In this document: positions 2,041 to 14,469 of the stretch, one piece after another
Layout: every line of letters starts with the position of its first letter
Numbering within the stretch: the stretch's first letter is position 1
From: a virus
Lineage: Duplodnaviria; Heunggongvirae; Uroviricota; Caudoviricetes
Virus record (IMG/VR): IMGVR_UViG_2859783438_000002
DNA length: 41,185 nucleotides
Direction: 5' to 3' (one strand)
The notes under the pieces: generated by a model
The model's database searches: none
Told to the model about the DNA's origin: nothing
The model's input: only the letters and a program-made list of their open reading frames with translations
Position numbers and translations under genes: made by a program

Positions 2041-3288
2041 CTATATTGCTGAAGGTACAGGCGTTTCCATAACTATTTGCTCGCGTTTTTTACTCAGGAA
2101 GAAAATGCCAAATAGCAACATTAGGCAGACAATACCCGAAATTGCGAAGAAAACTGTCTGGTAGCCTGCGTGGTCAAAGAGTATCCCAGTCGGCGTTGAA
2201 AGCAGCACAATCCCAAGCGAACTGGCAATTTGAAAACCAATCAGAAAGATCGTCGACGACAGGCGCTTATCAAAATTTGCCACGCTGTATTTGAAGACGG
2301 ATATGACACAAAGTGGAACCTCAATGGCATGTAACAGCTTCACTAATGAAATAATCCAGGGGTTAACGAACAGCGCGCAGGAAAGGATACGCAACGCCAT
2401 AATCACAACACCGATAAGTAATGCATTTTTTGGCCCTACCCGATTCACAAAGAAAGGAATAATCGCCATGCATAGCGCTTCGAGTACCACCTGGAATGAG
2501 TTGAGATAACCATACAGGCGCGTTCCTACATCGTGTGATTCGAATAAACCTGCATAAAAGACAGGAAAAAGTTGTTGATCAAAAATGTTATAGAAAGACC
2601 ACGTCCCCACAATAAATATGACGAAAACCCAGAAGTTTCGATCCTTGAAAACTGCGATAAAATCCTCTTTTTTTACCCCTCCCGCATCCGCCGCTACGCA
2701 CTGGTGATCCTTATCTTTAAAACACATGTTGATCATCATAAATACAGCGCCAAATAGCGAGACCAACCAGAAGTTGATATGGGGACTGATACTAAAAAAT
2801 ATGCCGGCAAAGAACGCGCCAATAGCATAGCCAAAAGATCCCCAGGCGCGCGCTGTTCCATATTCGAAATGAAAATTTCGCGCCATTTTTTCGGTGAAGC
2901 TGTCAAGCAAACCGCATCCCGCCAGATACCCCAGGCCAAAAAAGAGCGCTCCCAGAATTAGACCTACAGAAAAATTGCTTTGCAGTAACGGTTCATAAAC
3001 GTAAATCATAAACGGTCCGGTCAAGACCAGGATGAAACTCATACACCAGATGAGCGGTTTCTTCAGACCGAGTTTATCCTGAACGATGCCGTAGAACATC
3101 ATAAATAGAATGCTGGTAAACTGGTTGACCGAATAAAGTGTACCTAATTCCGTCCCTGTCAACCCTAGATGTCCTTTCAGCCAAATAGCGTATAACGACC
3201 ACCACAGCGACCAGGAAATAAAAAAGAGAAATGAGTAACTGGATGCAAAACGATAGTACGCATTTCTGAATGGAATATTCAGTGCCAT
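2041..3288 (-). CDS. cscB: LacY-family oligosaccharide:H+ symporter, sucrose permease CscB-like (415 aa)
   Basis: 12-TM MFS protein with LacY-family motifs (e.g. NFWVFVIFIVGTWSFYNIFDQQ); 415 aa matches CscB; PfkB-kinase 3' remnant (cscK) immediately upstream; argW att copy nearby. Confidence 0.6.
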   Translation of the reverse strand: MALNIPFRNAYYRFASSYSFLFFISWSLWWSLYAIWLKGHLGLTGTELGTLYSVNQFTSILFMMFYGIVQDKLGLKKPLIWCMSFILVLTGPFMIYVYEPLLQSNFSVGLILGALFFGLGYLAGCGLLDSFTEKMARNFHFEYGTARAWGSFGYAIGAFFAGIFFSISPHINFWLVSLFGAVFMMINMCFKDKDHQCVAADAGGVKKEDFIAVFKDRNFWVFVIFIVGTWSFYNIFDQQLFPVFYAGLFESHDVGTRLYGYLNSFQVVLEALCMAIIPFFVNRVGPKNALLIGVVIMALRILSCALFVNPWIISLVKLLHAIEVPLCVISVFKYSVANFDKRLSSTIFLIGFQIASSLGIVLLSTPTGILFDHAGYQTVFFAISGIVCLMLLFGIFFLSKKREQIVMETPVPSAI

Positions 3289-3420: not shown

Positions 3421-3674
3421 GGGTAATGACTCCAACTTATTGATAGTGTTTTATGTTCAGATAATGCCCGATGACTTTGTCATGCAGCTCCACCGATTTT
3501 GAGAACGACAGCGACTTCCGTCCCAGCCGTGTCAGGTGCTGCCTCAGATTCAGGTTATGCCGCTCAATTCGCTGCGTATATCGCTTGCTGATTACGTGCA
3601 GCTTTCCCTTCAGGCGGGATTCATACAGCGGCCAGCCATCCGTCATCCATATCACCACGTCAAAGGGTGACAGC

Positions 3675-3774
3675 NNNNNNNNNNNNNNNNNNNNNNNNNN
3701 NNNNNNNNNNNNNNNNNNNNNNNNNNNNNNNNNNNNNNNNNNNNNNNNNNNNNNNNNNNNNNNNNNNNNNNNNN
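3675..3774. other. Assembly/scaffold gap (100 N) inside IS1
   Basis: Run of exactly 100 N. Confidence 0.99.
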
Positions 3775-3912
3775 TAAAAGTCCTCTCTGCTCAGCATGTT
3801 GATGTCCTTTCTGGTGTGAGAACCTTAAGGAAACAACATGTTGGGTGGAGCGGACAATCCAAATGGCGAATTACCGTCTTATATCACTGGCGCTGACAAT
3901 ATCAATGATTTT

Positions 3913-4140
3913 CTGGTGCGTACCGGGTTGAGAAGCGGTGTAAGTGAACTGCAGTTGCCATGTTTTACGGCAGTGAGAGCAGAGATAGCGCTGATGTCCG
4001 GCAGTGCTTTTGCCGTTACGCACCATCTGGTGCGTACCGGGTTGAGAAGCGGTGTAAGTGAACTGCAGTTGCCATGTTTTACGGCAGTGAGAGCAGAGAT
4101 AGCGCTGATGTCCGGCAGTGCTTTTGCCGTTACGCACCAC
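3913..4140. repeat. Tandem direct duplication, 2 x 114 bp, within IS1 insA
   Basis: 3913-4026 and 4027-4140 are identical except the last base; yields the duplicated peptide seen in the InsA-like ORF. Confidence 0.8.
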
Positions 4141-4350: not shown

Positions 4351-4779
4351 TTATTTAGACAAACTATCTAATTTTTGCGTCGCTTTTTGTGTTAGGTCGC
4401 TGTAACTGATAAACCCTACGTTAGCACCTACAATTAACACTAAGAACACTAAGCTGCATATGGATAGAGTGGCAGATTTATGCTTATGGAAAACAAAATA
4501 TGCTACTATTGCACTTAATATGAAGGAAATGAATAGAAATATAGATGTTGATGTTTTTAGATATTTTTCAGGAAATAATGGGTGAGCAATAATGTATACA
4601 AGATTAAGTAGTATATAAATTGCTACCGGAATGAAAATCATGCTCCAGTGTGTATCTTTTTTGGGAGGGATTGGCTGCAAATAATCAGACACCGTTTTTC
4701 CATCAGTTTCAAGAAGAATTACTAGATCTCTTACTTCACCACTGACTTGAGTGCCATCCTTAGTAGTAATGTTAATCAT
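4351..4779 (-). CDS. Hypothetical membrane protein (142 aa): N-terminal soluble ~50 aa, then about 3 TM helices
   Basis: Start MINITTKDG at 4779 with GGAGGG 7 nt upstream. Hydrophobic segments IFIPVAIYILLNLVYII, IFLFISFILSAIVAYFVF, ICSLVFLVLIVGANVGFI. Confidence 0.5.
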   Translation of the reverse strand: MINITTKDGTQVSGEVRDLVILLETDGKTVSDYLQPIPPKKDTHWSMIFIPVAIYILLNLVYIIAHPLFPEKYLKTSTSIFLFISFILSAIVAYFVFHKHKSATLSICSLVFLVLIVGANVGFISYSDLTQKATQKLDSLSK

Positions 4780-7479: not shown

Positions 7480-8562
7480 TTAGAACTGGTAAACCATACC
7501 TACAGCAACGATATCATCGGTAGCAACGCCAGATGCTTTCGTGAAATCGCTCTTATCAATCAGGTTGATTTTGTAATCAACAAAAGTGGACATATTTTTG
7601 TTGAAGTAATAGGTTGCACCTACATCAATATATTCAACCAGGTCCTGATCACCCCACGCACCCAAGTCTTTTCCTTTAGATTGCAGGTAAGCAACGGACG
7701 GACGCAGACCGAAGTCGAACTGATATTGTGCAACTACTTCGAAGTTTTGTGCTTTGTTGGCAATATGGTTATTACCAAAAACAGTCATGTTCTGGGTTTC
7801 AGAATAGGTGGTAGCCAGATAGATGTTGTTCGCATCATATTTCAGACCAGCTGCCCATACTTCAGCATTTTGACCAGATGCATTCAGGCTGTTGTTACCG
7901 TAGATAACCTGATTATTAGTGCGGTCAGATTTAGCATAGGTTGCACCTACACCGAATCCTTCATACTCATAAGTAGTGGAGAAACCGAAACCATCACCAT
8001 TAGCTTCAGTTACGTCAGTGCGGTCATTTTTACCCTGATACTGAGCAGCAAAGTTCAGACCATCAACCAGACCAAAGAAGTCGTTGTTACGATAAGTTGC
8101 AACACCAGTGGTGCGACCAGTCATGAACACATCTGTTTGAGTCCAAGTGTCACCACCGAATTCTGGCAGGACGTCAGTCCACGCACCGATGTCGTATGCT
8201 ACACCGTAGTTACGGCCGTAATCGATGGAGCCGTAGTCACCGAATTTCAGGCCAGCGAAGGCAAGACGGGTTTTATCTTTGGAGGAACCTTGAGATTCAG
8301 CGCGGTTGCCTTTGAATTCATATTCCCACTGACCGAAACCAGTCAGTTGATCGTTGATTTGGGTTTCACCTTTGAAGCCAAGACGGGCATAAGTAGTATC
8401 ACCATCATCTGCATCATTAGAGGAGAAGTAGTGCTTAGCATTAACTTTCCCGTACAGATCCAGCTTGTTACTGTCTTTATTATAAATTTCAGCTGCCTGA
8501 GCAGACATCGCCATCAGTACTGATGCAGCTACAGCAGAAATTGCCACTGTTAATTTTTTCAT
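7480..8562 (-). CDS. nmpC: Outer-membrane general porin NmpC/OmpD-like, apparently intact, with signal peptide
   Basis: Start [23 protein letters not shown] (signal peptide), C-terminal ...VGMVYQF typical of OmpC/OmpF-family porins; location between Q and lysis genes as in DLP12. Confidence 0.85.
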
Positions 8563-8952
8563 CGTGAGCCCTTTTTTTGAACTATTATTAAAAAATGATG
8601 TCACTGCGCGATAAATATTCATCTAATCAATGTGATTATTTCAAGATGTAAGTTTTGGTTTCTCGTTTGATTTGTGAAGTAGATCTCTATTTTTATCTGA
8701 ACTTTTTTCTATCGAATCCTATTCATGGCTCTTGGCTGAATAAAAATAAATCTATTAGCCAATTTATATTAACGGCTGTTATTTATAAGTGCTCTATAAT
8801 TTGAAGGTTCAATTTAAACCGGCTAAAAATAACACTGGAAATTATTTGTTGGTTATTTGTTGGGATTTGCTTATGTATTTGTAGTGGTGTTTTCAATACT
8901 CGGTAGCATTCTCGCAAATATCATTTAGTGGTTTACGTACGTAAAAAATTGG

Positions 8953-9416
8953 GGTAATGACTCCAACTTATTGATAGTGTTTTATGTTCAGATAATGCCC
9001 GATGACTTTGTCATGCAGCTCCACCGATTTTGAGAACGACAGCGACTTCCGTCCCAGCCGTGCCAAGTGCTGCCTCAGATTCAGGTTATGCCGCTCAATT
9101 CGCTGCGTATATCGCTTGCTGATTACGTGCAGCTTTCCCTTCAGGCGGGATTCATACAGCGGCCAGCCATCCGTCATCCATATCACCACGTCAAAGGGTG
9201 ACAGCCGTACCGGGTTGAGAAGCGGTGTAAGTGAACTGCAGTTGCCATGTTTTACGGCAGTGAGAGCAGAGATAGCGCTGATGTCCGGCAGTGCTTTTGC
9301 CGTTACGCACCACCCCGTCAGTAGCTGAACAGGAGGGACAGCTGATAGAAACAGAAGCCACTGGAGCACCTCAAAAACACCATCATACACTAAATCAGTA
9401 AGTTGGCAGCATCACC
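8953..9416 (-). mobile_element. insAB: IS1 copy lacking about 320 bp of its interior, flanked by 8-bp direct repeats AAAATTGG
   Basis: Both IS1 termini present; internal junction ...caaagggtgacagc|cgtaccgggttg; flanks 8945-8952 and 9417-9424 are identical (target-site duplication). Confidence 0.8.
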
Positions 9417-9461
9417 AAAATTGGTTATGCTGTTAAGAGTGGTTACTTCGTCACACAGCTT

Positions 9462-9486
9462 AAACCCGCCGTCGAGCGGGTTTTTC
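9462..9486 (+). terminator. Rho-independent terminator-like hairpin plus T-run upstream of the holin gene (tR'-like position)
   Basis: AAACCCGC-CGTCGA-GCGGGTTT followed by TTTTCC. Confidence 0.45.
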
Positions 9487-9606
9487 CATTTTTTGAGTCT
9501 CGATATTAGCTGATAACCCAATACCTGAGTTATTCACTGACTCCGAGTCTGTTACGTTTCGTAGTATTCCCTCAATTTACACCCGCTTTGTCTGCGAGGT
9601 GGGGTT

Positions 9607-9822
9607 ATGAAATCCATGGATAAGTTAACAACGGGTGTCGCCTATGGCACCTCAGCAGGTAGTGCCGGGTACTGGTTTTTACAGCTGCTAGATAAAGTCA
9701 CGCCCTCACAGTGGGCGGCAATTGGAGTGCTGGGTAGCCTGGTATTTGGCCTGCTGACGTACCTGACAAACCTTTATTTCAAGATTAAAGAAGATAAGCG
9801 CAAGGCTGCGAGAGGTGGATAA
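9607..9822 (+). CDS. essD: Class II pinholin, phage 21 S21/EssD-like, with dual-start motif (MKSM...)
   Basis: Near-identical to recalled S21 ([13 protein letters not shown]...[12 protein letters not shown]...[10 protein letters not shown]); two TM segments. Confidence 0.85.
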
Positions 9823-10319
9823 TGCCTCCATCATTACGAAAAGCTGTTGCTGCTGCTATTGGTGGCGGGGCTATTGCTATAGCATCTGTGTTAATCACTG
9901 GCCCAGGTGGTAACGATGGTCTGGAAGGTGTGAGACATAATCCTTACAAAGACATAGTTGGTGTATGGACTGTATGTTACGGGCATACAGGAAAAGACAT
10001 CATTCCCGGTAAAACGTATACCGAAGCAGAGTGCAAAGCCCTCCTGAATAAAGACCTTGCCACTGTCGCCAGACAAATTAACCCGTACATCAAAGTCGAT
10101 ATACCGGAAACAACGCGCTGCGCTCTTTACTCGTTCGTCTACAACGTGGGTGCTGGCAATTTCAGAACATCGACGCTTCTTCGCAAAATAAACCAGGGTG
10201 ATATTAAAGGCGCATGTGATCAGCTACGGCGCTGGACATACGCTGGCGGTAATCAATGGAAAGGACTGATGACTCGCCGTGAGATTGAGCGTGAAGTCTG
10301 TTTGTGGGGGAAACAATGA
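9822..10319 (+). CDS. rrrD: SAR (signal-anchor-release) endolysin, phage 21 R21/RrrD-like lysozyme
   Basis: N-terminal Gly/Ala-rich SAR segment ([20 protein letters not shown]) then lysozyme domain; matches recalled R21. Confidence 0.85.
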
Positions 10320-10774
10320 GCAGAGTAACCGCGATTATCTCCGCTCTGGTTATCTGCATCATCGTCTGCCTGTCATTGGCTGTTAATCATTACCGTGATA
10401 ACGCAATCGCCTACAAAGAGCAGCGCGATAACAAGGCCAGTGAACTGGAGAAGGCGAACGCCACCATCGCTGACATGCGGAAGCGTCAACGTGATGTAGC
10501 AGAACTCGACGCAAGATACATAAAGGAGCTTGCTGATGCTAACGCGACTATCGAAAGTCTCCGTGCTGATGTTTCTGCTGGGCGTAAGCGCCTGCAAGTC
10601 GCCGCCACCTGTGCAAAGTCAACGACCGGAGCCAGCGGCATGGGCGATGGAGAAAGCCCAGGACTTACAGCAGATGCTGAACTCAATTATTACCGTCTCC
10701 GAAGTGGAATCGACAAGATAACCGCGCAGGTTAACTACCTGCAGGAATACATCAGGACGCAATGCCTGAAATAA
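10316..10774 (+). CDS. rzpD: Spanin inner-membrane subunit Rz (i-spanin)
   Basis: Start [20 protein letters not shown] (N-terminal TM) then coiled-coil; matches lambda/21 Rz. Confidence 0.8.
10530..10721 (+). CDS. rzoD: Spanin outer-membrane lipoprotein subunit Rz1 (o-spanin), embedded in the +1 frame of Rz
   Basis: Lipobox LLGVSAC followed by Pro-rich segment; fully embedded in Rz. Confidence 0.6.
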
Positions 10775-10975
10775 TTTTTTTGCAAATCACAAAGTCCATT
10801 TAATGAGCCTCGCGATGCGGGGCTTTTTGCAATAAATGCGTACCGCAACGCATGTTTTTTACACCGAACCTGCCCCTTTGGAATGGGCCTTTGAGGATAC
10901 CAGTTAGTGCTGGCGAGCCTCGGTGGGCTGGTTTCCTGTGCGGCAAAGGTTCATTTCAAAGAGTAGGTACACGCT

Positions 10976-11473
10976 ATGAAATCATTAACCCTCTTCAATC
11001 AACCAATTCGTATCGGTGAAGATGGCATGATCTGCCTCACTGATATGTGGAAAGCCAGTGGTAAAAGTGAATCTGAATCGCCTTACCACTACCTGCGAAA
11101 CAAGCAGACCAAAGAGTTCTTAGCCGAGCTGGAGAAAAACCACGAATCTGTGGTTTTTACTGAGCGCGGTGTACACGGTGGAACATATGGCGGGAAGTTT
11201 GTTGCTTACGATTATGCGGCTTGGTTAAACCCCGGGTTCAAGTACGCGGCCTATAAAGTCCTCGATGACTACTTCACCGGAGAACTTCAGCATCGCAACA
11301 GCTTAAGTGCGCAGCTCAACATGAAATGTCATGAATTTGACCAGAAGAAAGACATGGCGAGCTTCTGCGGACAAGGGCTGGCAGCATGGCGCTATACGAA
11401 GCCAGTGTTGGTCGCTGAGATTAACTCCCTGGCTAACCAGCTGCAGATTACGATCCCCGGGCTTCCGGGATGA
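10976..11473 (+). CDS. KilA-N domain protein (165 aa)
   Basis: Segment ...KQTKEFLAELEK...GTYGGKFVAYDYAAWLNPGFKYAAYKVLDDY resembles KilA-N consensus (recall-based). Confidence 0.5.
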   Translation: MKSLTLFNQPIRIGEDGMICLTDMWKASGKSESESPYHYLRNKQTKEFLAELEKNHESVVFTERGVHGGTYGGKFVAYDYAAWLNPGFKYAAYKVLDDYFTGELQHRNSLSAQLNMKCHEFDQKKDMASFCGQGLAAWRYTKPVLVAEINSLANQLQITIPGLPG

Positions 11474-11727
11474 GTGATCATGTTATTGAATGCGCCTCCA
11501 GAGCGGGGCGCGACTTCTCAGAGTTCATGAAAGGCGAGAAGGGCATGATGGAAGCATTGGCCTCGGTGGATGAGTTTGGCGAGCAGCTGCGCCTCAACGG
11601 CTGTGTCAATCATCACTTTGTTAGCTACATGATGCGGAACTCGATCATGCAGGCATTCATGGACATGGCAAAAGCCGAGAGGAAAGAAGAGCGCCGGCGT
11701 AAGCGAGCGGAAGCAAAAGCGAAGTAG
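11470..11727 (+). CDS. Hypothetical small protein (85 aa) with basic C-terminal tail; translationally coupled to the KilA-N gene
   Basis: ATGA overlap with upstream stop; KRAEAKAK-type tail. Confidence 0.4.
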   Translation: MSDHVIECASRAGRDFSEFMKGEKGMMEALASVDEFGEQLRLNGCVNHHFVSYMMRNSIMQAFMDMAKAERKEERRRKRAEAKAK

Positions 11728-12150
11728 CCATTACAAAGCCCATTTACGGGTGGGCTTGATAATGAAACCGGAATTTATTCTGGGCCACCAGTTAACGGCA
11801 GTACCACGAAACAACCCAAGCCAGTAAGTGGGGAAATAACACCGGCAGCCACTGAAAGATGAACCTCCTGCCTTATGGCAAAAAAGATTCTTTGTGGTGG
11901 CGGACTGATGGAAAGACATCCCAATTTCAGCCAAACATTGAAGGAGTTGTTATGTCAGCAGAAGGTTTCAATAACCCATCAAAATTCCGGGATGAGTGGG
12001 ATAGCAGCGTAAAGAGTAAGTGATGCCATCACAAAAGCCATTCCCTACAGAGTGGCTTTGATAATGGCTTATACTACACGGGATAACTTAACTGATATCC
12101 CTTTTAAAGGATAAAGGTATTCAAGCCTGACACATCATGCGCTGTATCGT

Positions 12151-12691
12151 TAGACTGGCCCCCTGAATCTCCAGACAACCAGTATCACTTAAATAAGTGA
12201 TAGTCTTAATACTAGTTTTTAGACTAGTCATTGGAGTACAGATGATTGATGTCTTAGGGCCGGAGAAACGCAGACGGCGTACCACACAGGAAAAGATCGC
12301 AATTGTTCAGCAGAGCTTTGAACCGGGGATGACGGTCTCCCTCGTTGCCCGGCAACATGGTGTAGCAGCCAGCCAGTTATTTCTCTNNNNNNNNNNNNNN
12401 NNNNNNNNNNNNNNNNNNNNNNNNNNNNNNNNNNNNNNNNNNNNNNNNNNNNNNNNNNNNNNNNNNNNNNNNNNNNNNNNNNNNNNAAACGATAAAGCGT
12501 GACTACATCAGTATCATGCCCAAACCAGACGGGTTAACGGCAGCAAAGAACCTTGCAGAGGCGTTCGAGCATTATAACGAATGGCATCCGCATAGTGCGC
12601 TGGGTTATCGCTCGCCACGGGAATATCTGCGGCAGCGGGCTTGTAATGGGTTAAGTGATAACAGATGTCTGGAAATATAGGGGCAAATCCA
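12151..12691 (+). mobile_element. insCD: IS2 (ends intact, interior replaced by a 100-N gap) flanked by 5-bp target-site duplication ATCGT
   Basis: Left end TAGACTGGCCCCCTGAATCTCC, InsC N-terminus [18 protein letters not shown] from 12242, InsD C-terminus ...[29 protein letters not shown] at 12146-12150 and 12692-12696. Confidence 0.85.
12387..12486. other. Assembly/scaffold gap (100 N) inside IS2
   Basis: Run of exactly 100 N. Confidence 0.99.
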
Positions 12692-12859
12692 ATCGTCGCC
12701 GTATTCCCGTATTAACAGAGACCGTAGCCCGACGGGGAACTCCTTCTGCGCGAGTGTGCGGGAATAATCAAAAACGATGCACACCGGGGTTACCGGGTAC
12801 ACATATTTCATCATGCCAGCGAGTCCGGTTCTGGCACGGAAGAAACCGGACGTTATGAT

Positions 12860-13270
12860 TTAGTGCGGAAATATTTGTGTAGTGTTCTGTATGTTCTCAG
12901 TAAAGAGTAATGAATTATCAAAGGTATAGTAATACCTTTTGTTTTCGTGGATATTTGTAATCCATCTGAAAACCCCTGCTGTAGCAAGATTTTTCCTGTA
13001 TTCGTAAAATGATAACTCTCCTGATTTGAATCCTTTTAAGGTGGCTTCTATAAGGCATTTATTTTTTGAAAATCTTACATTTACAACCTTACCCTGTCCT
13101 TTTATTAAAACCGTATTATCGTTTTCAAGAACAAGATGAATATTCTCTGTGGCTAAATAGTAAATGTAATGTGAGACATTGTGACGTTTTAGTTCAGAAT
13201 AAAACCAGTGATAGTTTAAATTATTTCGCACTTTATCGAATATTTGTTTAAAAATGGCAACCTGAGCCAT
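12860..13270 (-). CDS. ybcV: YbcV-like protein (DUF1398-type, 136 aa from MAQV); AT-rich
   Basis: Size and position (downstream of ylcI, antisense to late genes) as in DLP12; assignment by context and recall. Confidence 0.5.
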
Positions 13271-13327
13271 TGTAGTACCTTCCATGTGATATGAGGGGGC
13301 GTAGTCTGCACGATTATCTAAATTGCT

Positions 13328-13561
13328 TCAATCTGGTCTAACCTGTTTTCTGAGCAATTCAGTAATGTCACTCTTTTCTTTGTTTGCTTCAGGCGAAACT
13401 CTTTTTTCTGAGCACAGTCTCCGGCGGCAGGCTTCAATGACCCAGGCTGAGAAATTCCCGGACCCTTTTTGAACAAGAGCGATGTTAATTTGTTCAATCA
13501 TTTGGTTAGGAAAGCGGATGTTGCGGGTTGTTGTTCTGCGGGTTCTGTTCTTCGTTGACAT
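13328..13561 (-). CDS. ylcI: YlcI-like small DNA-binding protein (ribbon-helix-helix-like N-terminus)
   Basis: N-terminus MSTKNRTRRTTTRNIRFPNQMIEQINIAL...NFSAWVIEACRRRL resembles Arc/CopG-type strand-helix-helix; position just upstream of cos/Nu1 as in DLP12. Confidence 0.5.
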   Translation of the reverse strand: MSTKNRTRRTTTRNIRFPNQMIEQINIALVQKGSGNFSAWVIEACRRRLCSEKRVSPEANKEKSDITELLRKQVRPD

Positions 13562-13760
13562 GAGGTTGCCCTGTATTCAGTGTCGCTGATTTGTATTGTC
13601 TGAAGTTGTTTTTACGTTAAGTTGATGCAGATCAATTAATACGATACCTGCGTCATAATTGATTATTTGACGTGGTTTGATGGCGTAGATGCACGTTGTG
13701 ACATGTAGATGATAATTATTATCATTTTGCGGGTCCTTTCCGGCGATCCGACAGGTTACG

Positions 13761-13772
13761 GGGCGGAAGGCG
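13761..13772. other. cos: cos site (cosN region) of the lambdoid prophage; cosB/IHF region follows to about 13950
   Basis: ...GGTCCTTTCCGGCGATCCGACAGGTTACG|GGGCGGAAGGCG|CGCGGGTTTTCGCTATTTATGA... is collinear with the lambda right-end/left-end join; the 12 nt differ from lambda GGGCGGCGACCT. Confidence 0.7.
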
Positions 13773-13949
13773 CGCGGGTTTTCGCTATTTATGACAATTT
13801 TCCGGTTTAAGGCGTTTCCGTTCTTCTTCGCCGTAACCTAATGTTTTTATTTAAAACACCCCCTGAAAAGAAAGGAAACGACAGGTGCTGAAAACGGGCT
13901 TTTTGGCCTCTGTCGTTTCCTTTCTCTGTTTTTGTCCGTGGAATGAACA

Positions 13950-14469
13950 ATGGAAGTCAACAAAAAGCAGCTGGCTGACATTTTCGGTGCGAGTATCCGT
14001 ACCATTCAGAACTGGCAGGAACAGGGAATGCCCGTTCTGCGAGGCGGTGGCAAGGGTAATGAGGTGCTTTATGACTCTGCCGCCGTTATAAGATGGTATG
14101 CCGAAAGGGATGCTGAAATTGAGAACGAAAAGCTGCGCCGGGAAGTTGAAGAACTGCGGCAGGCCAGCGAGACAGATCTCCAGCCAGGGACTATTGAGTA
14201 CGAACGCCATCGACTTACGCGTGCGCAGGCCGACGCACAGGAGCTGAAAAATGCCAGAGACTCCGCTGAAGTGGTGGAAACCGCATTCTGTACTTTCGTG
14301 CTGTCGCGGATCGCAGGTGAAATTGCCAGTATTCTCGACGGGATCCCCCTGTCGGTGCAGCGGCGTTTTCCGGAACTGGAAAACCGACATGTTGATTTCC
14401 TGAAACGGGATATCATCAAAGCCATGAACAAAGCAGCCGCGCTGGATGAACTGATACCGGGGTTGCTGA

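Follow-up and report, generated by a model that had tools for sequence, protein, structure and literature searches.

In a 41,185-nucleotide (nt) stretch of DNA from a virus of the Caudoviricetes (IMG/VR record IMGVR_UViG_2859783438_000002; the whole stretch is called the window here), we analyzed two overlapping genes on the plus strand, A (10976-11473; 165 amino acids (aa), with a KilA-N and an ORF11CD3 domain) and B (11470-11727; 85 aa, a three-helix protein of the PHROG 875 family that is coupled to A), together with the RNA leader that precedes A. The gene pair is an ordinary, widespread and already annotated accessory pair. Three things are new: A is preceded by a covariation-supported pseudoknotted leader that is not in Rfam and is common to P22 rha and many other phage genes, B is obligately linked to KilA-N genes, and B is a shuffling module. 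The original prediction for this locus, which concerned the pair, overlooked both the ORF11CD3 domain and the structured leader, the latter being the most distinctive feature of the locus. We tentatively favor the reading that terminator, leader, A and B form a mobile accessory (‘moron’) cassette in the post-lysis rha slot, in which the pseudoknotted leader occludes the ribosome-binding site, and that this cassette is a late, translationally gated, Rha-like module.

The 170 nt between Rz and A (10806-10975) keep their architecture across several genera, among which the A homologues are just 50% identical. All elements of this region lie on the plus strand. A terminator-like hairpin, T1, was read from the sequence 3' of Rz (10806-10828; AGCCTCGC-gatg-GCGGGGCT and then TTTTT). 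The T1 element (AGCCTCG..CGGGGCTTTTTT) accompanies the cassette into other genomic surroundings, since HK620, P22, mEp234 and the tail-region copies of Klebsiella all have it 5' of the cassette. A second hairpin, P0 (10836-10860; ATGCGT-accgca-ACGCAT followed by a T run), was reported by the terminator scan and looks like a second terminator in the window type of leader. In other leader types, the sequence GCGCA-N6-TGCGC occupies the same place, a compensatory change relative to the window type (RNAalifold). The pseudoknotted domain itself (10862-10953, ∼95 nt) follows P0 and is supported by covariation. It comprises an outer P_b helix (10884-10893 with 10944-10953), an inner P_b helix (10894-10897 with 10934-10937), P_c (10899-10903 with 10928-10932), the P_d hairpin (10909-10918) and helix a (10862-10867, CACCGA, with 10920-10925, TCGGTG), which pairs with the P_c loop and thereby creates the pseudoknot. 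The window contains exactly one copy of this leader.

Several lines of evidence support the pairings in this domain. Compensatory changes were found in 17 of the 29 base pairs (RNAalifold). In alignment-free strand matching of helices a, P_c and P_b, the strands from one leader pair over a longer stretch with each other than with strands from foreign leaders, a result reached in none of 10000 permutations for each helix; helix a was judged by alignment-free means, as the MAFFT and covariance-model alignments put it in three registers. Across 90 distinct leaders, there are 28 distinct complementary strand pairs for helix a, 21 for outer P_b, 17 for inner P_b and 34 for P_c. Indeed, both strands switch together among close leaders, from CACCGA/TCGGTG to CGTCGA/TCGACG to CCACAGA/TCTGTGG, and from CACAGAA/TTCTGTG to CTCAGAA/TTCTGAG. 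A covariance model, with a seed that left out the window-type and L270-type leaders, finds the window leader (10850-10972, 31 bits, E 1.7e-4) and scores the P22 leader at 40.7 bits. Among 94 distinct sequences, 89.3% of cells pair, a figure that drops to 68.3% in shuffles and to 32-48% when the partners are slid, and two-sided changes are present in 20 of 22 pairs; the covariation score is 0.459 versus 0.158 for shuffled alignments (a value reached by none of 500 shuffles), and slid partners score no more than 0.10, with the qualification that this alignment was fitted to the covariance model, which favors the structure, a concern lessened by the slid-partner controls and the left-out leader types. 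The element matches no family in Rfam 15 at E ≤ 1 over 9400-14000, and 211-231-nt slices gave chance-level, sub-threshold scores of at most 18 bits.

The leader is also predicted to control access to the start of A. The Shine-Dalgarno (SD) sequence of A (10963-10968, GUAGGU, plus strand) lies at the base of a long hairpin in the minimum-free-energy fold of the window leader (−48.7 kcal/mol, z = −2.9), where it pairs with 10868-10873 (ACCUGC), and the flanking positions 10953-10963 pair with 10873-10884. Over the ensemble of folds, the SD of the window leader is left unpaired with a probability of 0.01; the mean over 90 leaders is 0.18, compared to 0.46 with the upstream sequence shuffled, and the value falls below 0.2 in 60% of these leaders. 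In these computed folds, the leader thus appears to hide the ribosome-binding site of A. Neither a motif scan nor inspection of the sequence revealed a LexA box in the leader; a TATAAA or TATCAA box occurs in some leader types and is not conserved in the window type.

The leader is not particular to A. It precedes KilA-N+P63C genes in mEp234, HK022 and Klebsiella ST11-VIM1phi8.1, genes in which B-like helices are joined to T5orf172, Phage_pRha+ORF11CD3 genes, other pRha and other KilA-N genes, as well as HNH_3+AP2 genes, HNH endonuclease genes and a few genes of unknown family. One leader subtype alone is found in 146 phage records, including CUS-3, Sf101, epsilon34, g341c, HK106, HK639, SPN3UB and 73 Stx2a phages. 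Conversely, the A protein is found behind at least three leader sequence types. Autoregulation of the leader by A was considered and rejected as unlikely, since non-homologous genes follow the same leader.

P22 rha is one of the genes that share this leader. The leader 5' of P22 rha is near-identical to window positions 10860-10975, and the covariance model matches both. The annotated GTG start of P22 rha (orf201; position 1576 of locus L465, which is NC_002371 38000-41724) falls inside the leader (1519-1650); the true start is probably an ATG 69 nt downstream (∼1646 in L465), which follows AAGAAGG and would yield a protein of ∼178 aa. The resemblance extends to location and upstream sequence: P22 rha, like phi80 rha, occupies the late-operon slot directly after Rz/Rz1 and before terminase, its upstream terminator and leader RNA are near-identical to those of the window, and P22 Rha ends in an ORF11CD3-type domain (...IPGLTN). 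P22 rha differs in its N-terminal module, which is Phage_pRha rather than KilA-N, and in lacking B. P22 and phi80 rha are described as late-operon genes that inhibit phage growth when IHF control is lost (PMC4936722). This reported IHF-dependent growth block fits tight control of the slot.

Additional copies of the leader were noted in other arrangements. In a Salmonella contig (AAHRTZ010000048, locus L106), a single prophage region carries four leaders (439-558, 2116-2245, 2884-3000 and 3633-3752), which precede genes encoding KilA-N+ORF11CD3, P22_AR_N+ORF11CD3, KilA-N (a weak match)+ORF11CD3 and KilA-N, respectively; this locus also has a truncated B remnant (SNRVIECASRAGR) followed by unrelated sequence. 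In Scandinavium hiltneri (L009, 3562-4242), an HNH_3-type endonuclease gene lies between a full leader and a KilA-N+P63C gene, and a second copy of the leader's 3' part (GACAGGCTCACTTTCTAAAAGG) follows the endonuclease gene, as if this gene had been inserted into the leader. Shorter leader copies (48-51 bits) occur ∼1 kb 3' of B in L179, L174 and L163 (3376-3474 in each), L243 (3116-3214) and L251 (2979-3093), and the leader element may thus serve more than a single gene between the lysis and terminase genes. A different conserved element (TGCAGGATAGG...CCGAAC.GGG...CTCTCCAC...CCTTCCTGCA) is present in L092 at ∼3800-4000 and ∼4520-4723, where it precedes a B-like+T5orf172 gene and the adjoining KilA-N+P63C gene, possibly as another leader motif that serves this gene network.

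The two genes proceed from this leader as a coupled pair. The A stop and the B start share ATGA at 11470-11473, a 4-nt overlap read from the sequence, and the coordinates, the overlap and the position between lysis and terminase genes are all as the original prediction had them, with the pair lying between Rz and the DUF1398/YlcI/Nu1 genes. No canonical SD is visible 5' of the B start in the junction sequences. The assignment of A to the KilA-N family, for which a profile check had been proposed, was borne out by Pfam (PF04383, aa 9-101, E 1.3e-15, 57.6 bits against a gathering cut-off of 23.8). Pfam also identifies ORF11CD3 in the remainder of the protein (PF10549, aa 109-161, E 2.4e-13, 50.5 bits, cut-off 25), and A matches PHROG 129 and PHROG 10441. 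The AlphaFold2 model of A has a predicted local distance difference test score (pLDDT) of 84.5, with a beta-beta-alpha-alpha-alpha-beta-beta-alpha core (pLDDT 80-91); beyond the core, the long helices 86-130 and 132-156 fold into a hairpin in the ORF11CD3 region. The APSES domain is the eukaryotic relative of KilA-N, and the APSES domain of yeast Mbp1 ranked second (E 0.79) in a Foldseek search of the PDB with this model, in which nothing fell below E 0.1. Pfam showed no match of A to Phage_pRha (PF09669) or to P22_AR_N or ANT, and no Arc genes adjoin A in the window. Neither A nor B matched a PDB sequence, a toxin-antitoxin family in Pfam, NCBIfam or PADLOC, or a nuclease domain, and neither has a nuclease motif.

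The domains of A have been exchanged among related genes. A domain swap is seen directly in P0147, a pRha+ORF11CD3 protein with 97% identity to the C-terminal part of A. Where Erwinia phage phiEt88, Cronobacter, Salmonella and Yersinia have a distant KilA-N+ORF11CD3 gene in this post-lysis slot, the gene lacks B and is accompanied by other small open reading frames (ORFs), often with a 4-nt overlap. One such family of ∼58-aa ORFs, which begin MTKTEYNRI, follows KilA-N+ORF11CD3 genes in L103 (3567-3683), L108 (954-1130) and L102 (∼1196-1370); the L103 copy has a 4-nt overlap with the upstream stop, and in L108 a 131-aa ORF lies between the KilA-N gene and the MTKTEYNRI ORF.

B is a conserved protein of a family with no assigned function. 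Its match to PHROG 875 (‘unknown function’) spans the whole protein (positions 1-85 of 85, E 1.3e-53). In a set of 5.8 billion proteins clustered at 90% identity, the family accounts for 137 clusters, exclusively from Enterobacterales; a profile search of 1.84 billion proteins yielded 20 representatives at 50% identity. Over 22 diverse members there are 21 invariant columns, including E7-C8-A9-S10-R11, G13-R14-D15-F16-S17 and G44-C45-x-N47. The structure prediction that had been suggested for this partner gave a confident AlphaFold2 model (pLDDT 91.9) with three helices (3-20, 26-42 and 48-84). The possibility that B is a chance ORF is ruled out by the PHROG match, the 137 clusters, the invariant columns and the confident model. 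A search of the PDB and BFVD with this model found no fold match below E 0.1; B belongs to no Pfam, NCBIfam or PADLOC family, and Pfam searches with the 22 homologues gave scattered sub-threshold matches only. A zinc site made up of C8, C45, H48 and H49 was also considered and rejected, as C8 is lost in the homologues P0122 and P0132. The C-terminus, previously described as strongly basic, is indeed basic, with 10 Lys or Arg among the last 19 residues, but it is of mixed charge, as it also contains 4 Glu.

B is found behind more than one type of gene. A set of ∼90 loci was retrieved by querying with B, and in every one of them B lies directly behind a Bro-network gene. B at 99.6% nucleotide identity follows a KilA-N+P63C gene (242 aa) in mEp234, HK022 and HK97-type phages; the encoded protein is 23% identical to A within the KilA-N domain, and the junction is TGAtcATG, not ATGA. 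Similarly, a divergent B (P0122) has a 4-nt overlap with the end of a Phage_pRha gene, in an operon that resembles P22 immI (Arc on the minus strand, then Arc, P22_AR_N, pRha and B on the plus strand). The most distant B homologues (P0132, P0134 and L430) have B-like helices fused to a T5orf172/MUG113 domain, and such B-like+T5orf172 fusions occupy the same slot 3' of the same leader. Among leader-bearing cassettes, a sample biased by how the loci were fetched, B follows KilA-N+ORF11CD3 in 282 of 317, KilA-N+P63C in 7 of 13 and pRha+ORF11CD3 in none of 9, and it never follows other gene types; in the same synteny survey, which the original prediction had called for, the 4-nt overlap is kept in 282 of the 317 KilA-N+ORF11CD3 loci, and the pairing of the two genes is therefore no accident. 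B subtypes track host genus (E. coli-type versus Klebsiella-type), and each occurs behind both KilA-N types.

The modular nature of these proteins is familiar. In 2002, Iyer, Koonin and Aravind reportedly described a Bro/KilA-N shuffling network that includes KilA-N, Bro-N, Phage_pRha, ANT, P22_AR_N, ORF11CD3, P63C and T5orf172. A conforms to this network to judge from its sequence, in that it combines an N-terminal DNA-binding domain with a swappable C-terminal domain and swaps of this type are seen, among them KilA-N+P63C in the slot that A fills here. B differs in that it is not a listed module, has no Pfam model and is here a separate, coupled polypeptide. Because B is elsewhere fused to T5orf172, we conclude that B is an unlisted module of this network, tied to KilA-N rather than to ORF11CD3.

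According to the reading we favor, the cassette would have no promoter of its own and would be transcribed mainly in the Q-antiterminated late operon, by transcription that reads through T1 and P0. Translation of A would be off by default due to the pairing of the leader with the SD and would be released by a shared trans-acting cue rather than by A; a shared cue is more plausible than autoregulation because the genes 3' of the leader are non-homologous to one another. B would be made only if A is translated, by termination and reinitiation at the ATGA, a dependence that is expected because B has no SD of its own. A, probably as a dimer formed through the ORF11CD3 hairpin, would act together with B on DNA as a regulator of the Rha-like or antirepressor-network kind. 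Virion production would not require the two proteins, which would instead modulate other elements, whether resident or competing, or the host. We favor a Rha-like or antirepressor-network role because the slot and leader are shared with rha, because a B homologue is found in an immI-like operon, because the domain network is shared with antirepressors, and because the cassette resides in late operons (post-lysis, and among tail genes in Klebsiella). A broader proposal, which we regard as possible although somewhat doubtful, is that the ∼95-nt pseudoknotted leader is an undescribed class of phage riboregulator, which senses a shared host or phage signal and gates Bro-network and homing-type genes after the lysis cassette, P22 rha among them, and that B is a network adaptor that works specifically with KilA-N.

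A number of points weigh against the late, translationally gated, Rha-like module. The promoter scan detected no sigma-70-like promoter between T1 and the A ATG, but such scans are weak evidence of absence, and the timing of expression would follow from position and motif scans alone. The pseudoknot could instead stabilize the mRNA or serve as a processing site. The finding that B subtypes follow genus, and not partner type, argues against a tightly co-evolving interface between A and B; B probably lacks an interface that co-evolves with one particular partner, and A and B may share a target without binding each other. Moreover, A-type genes in other genera lack B and have other small coupled ORFs, and the fold searches made here gave no significant match for either protein.

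Comparison with known leaders and antirepressor loci helps to place the proposed control. Leaders that sequester an SD include riboswitch platforms, RNA thermometers and protein-bound pseudoknots such as that of T4 gene 32. The window leader resembles these in its conserved 5' fold, its pseudoknot and its predicted anti-SD:SD pairing, but it serves non-homologous genes, so that autoregulation by a product is unlikely. We know of no ligand, protein or temperature response for this leader. The P22 immI region (mnt-arc-ant) and the RNA control of ant genes (P22 sar, P1 c4) likewise involve a related protein network and, if the predicted fold is correct, have in common with the window an RNA-level control 5' of the gene. 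They differ in that the window has no Arc or Mnt genes and in that its leader is a fold in cis with no match to the Rfam families C4, c4-a1b1 or sar.

The alternative that fares best is that the pair is an anti-phage defense or exclusion module expressed in the lysogen, with KilA-N sensing incoming phage DNA, as in BstA, and B acting as effector or modulator. BstA of Salmonella prophage BTP1 is, like A, prophage-encoded and has a KilA-N-like N-terminal domain (PMC8585504); A also weakly matches the PADLOC candidate PDC-S22 through its KilA-N core (E 1.2e-8), and the lysis-to-terminase region is a moron hotspot within which this cassette is mobile between phages. However, BstA is one polypeptide of 307 aa that has a C-terminal domain of its own, whereas A is 165 aa, lacks that domain and does not match the PADLOC BstA model. 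B matches no defense family in PADLOC (QatB at E 0.022 only), and Rha, HNH and T5orf172 genes are also found in this slot behind this leader. The upstream terminator, the lack of a promoter match and the predicted sequestration of the SD are a poor fit to constitutive expression in a lysogen. We therefore consider this explanation unlikely; a possible BstA-like defense role is less well supported than a Rha-like or antirepressor-network role.

The slot and leader might instead be a dock for recombination and expression, in which A and B are kept mainly by their own mobility as a selfish, homing-type cassette of little benefit to phage or host. The occurrence of the same leader before HNH_3+AP2, HNH homing-endonuclease and T5orf172 (GIY-YIG superfamily) genes speaks for this idea, as do the insertion of an HNH gene into the L009 leader with duplication of the leader 3' part, the presence of the same A protein behind at least three leader sequence types, and the four tandem leader+Bro-network cassettes in one Salmonella prophage. 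It is nevertheless decidedly unlikely: A and B are without nuclease motif or nuclease domain match, and the strong purifying conservation of B, with its 21 invariant columns, and that of the RNA structure imply selection for a molecular function. Of the four readings, the least supported is a kil/anti-kil pair, in which B would temper or redirect a host-toxic, KilA-type A. In its favor, the annotation of HK620 hkbK notes similarity to P1 KilA, expression of P1 kilA is lethal to the host, every B in the examined loci has a Bro-network gene upstream of it, and a toxic product is expected to be under tight translational repression. We judge it highly improbable, since a B that depends on reinitiation would not exceed A in amount, an unusual arrangement for a neutralizer, B does not co-vary with A type, and many A homologues lack B.

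The host element of the cassette is a lambdoid prophage; the region around the pair is 99.7% identical to Escherichia phage PhiR49_1, the depositors of which labeled A ‘KilA-N-ORF11CD3’. The order of genes is porin (minus strand), an insertion sequence (IS) 1 remnant, holin (9607), endolysin (9822), Rz (10304), A and B, followed by IS2 ends around a masked run, DUF1398/YbcV and YlcI (both minus strand), Nu1 (13950) and terminase A. The OmpC/NmpC-like porin gene (7480-8622, minus strand), a typical lambdoid moron, lies between the Q region and the lysis genes; in PhiR49_1 it is annotated OmpD. The IS1 transposase remnant (8968-9390, minus strand) lies between the porin and holin genes, and the IS2 ends (TnpA N-terminus and TnpB C-terminus; 12197-12680, plus strand) flank a masked run of N between B and DUF1398. 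These IS elements, which flank the lysis-KilA block, are missing in the otherwise near-identical PhiR49_1. 3' of B, a hairpin without a T run was read from the sequence (11737-11756, plus strand; AGCCCA-tttacggg-TGGGCT); the terminator scan made no call there, and the hairpin represents either a weak terminator or the boundary of a module. Two similar hairpin-bearing stretches ∼300 nt apart, 11730-11763 (ACAAAGCCCATTTACGGGTGGGCTTGATAATG) and 12024-12066 (ACAAAAGCCATTCCCTACAGAGTGGCTTTGATAATG), could be duplicated module boundaries or terminators.

The cassette is widespread. Of 5426 complete E. coli genomes, 388 contain leader, A and B (10855-11727) at ≥80% coverage. Further carriers of the pair are HK620 (as hkbK/hkbL), the Stx-converting phages 1717 and 2851, Shigella phage Ss-VASD, Salmonella phages S107, S135 and S137, and one Klebsiella phage. 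In Klebsiella phages, the cassette lies among tail genes next to an Arc/Arc/Bro-N locus. The description of the pair as poorly characterized holds: the literature library searched has no paper on hkbK/hkbL, the pair or the function of the locus, and none that joins KilA-N with a covarying RNA motif, and the RefSeq names are ‘KilA-N domain-containing protein’ for A and ‘hypothetical protein’ for B.

KilA-N, Bro and Rha proteins are among the commonest phage proteins without a defined function. The present analysis provides three handles on them, namely an obligate partner, B, for KilA-N genes irrespective of their C-terminal domain, a cassette boundary that explains swaps between phages, and a shared RNA control element. 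This RNA element is present in model phages that can be mutated directly, including P22, HK620, HK022, HK97-like and Stx phages, and the leader may bear on the reported IHF-dependent control of rha. Since this very cassette is present in ∼7% of complete E. coli genomes and the leader in many Stx2a phages, any role of this cassette in regulation or interference would be widespread.

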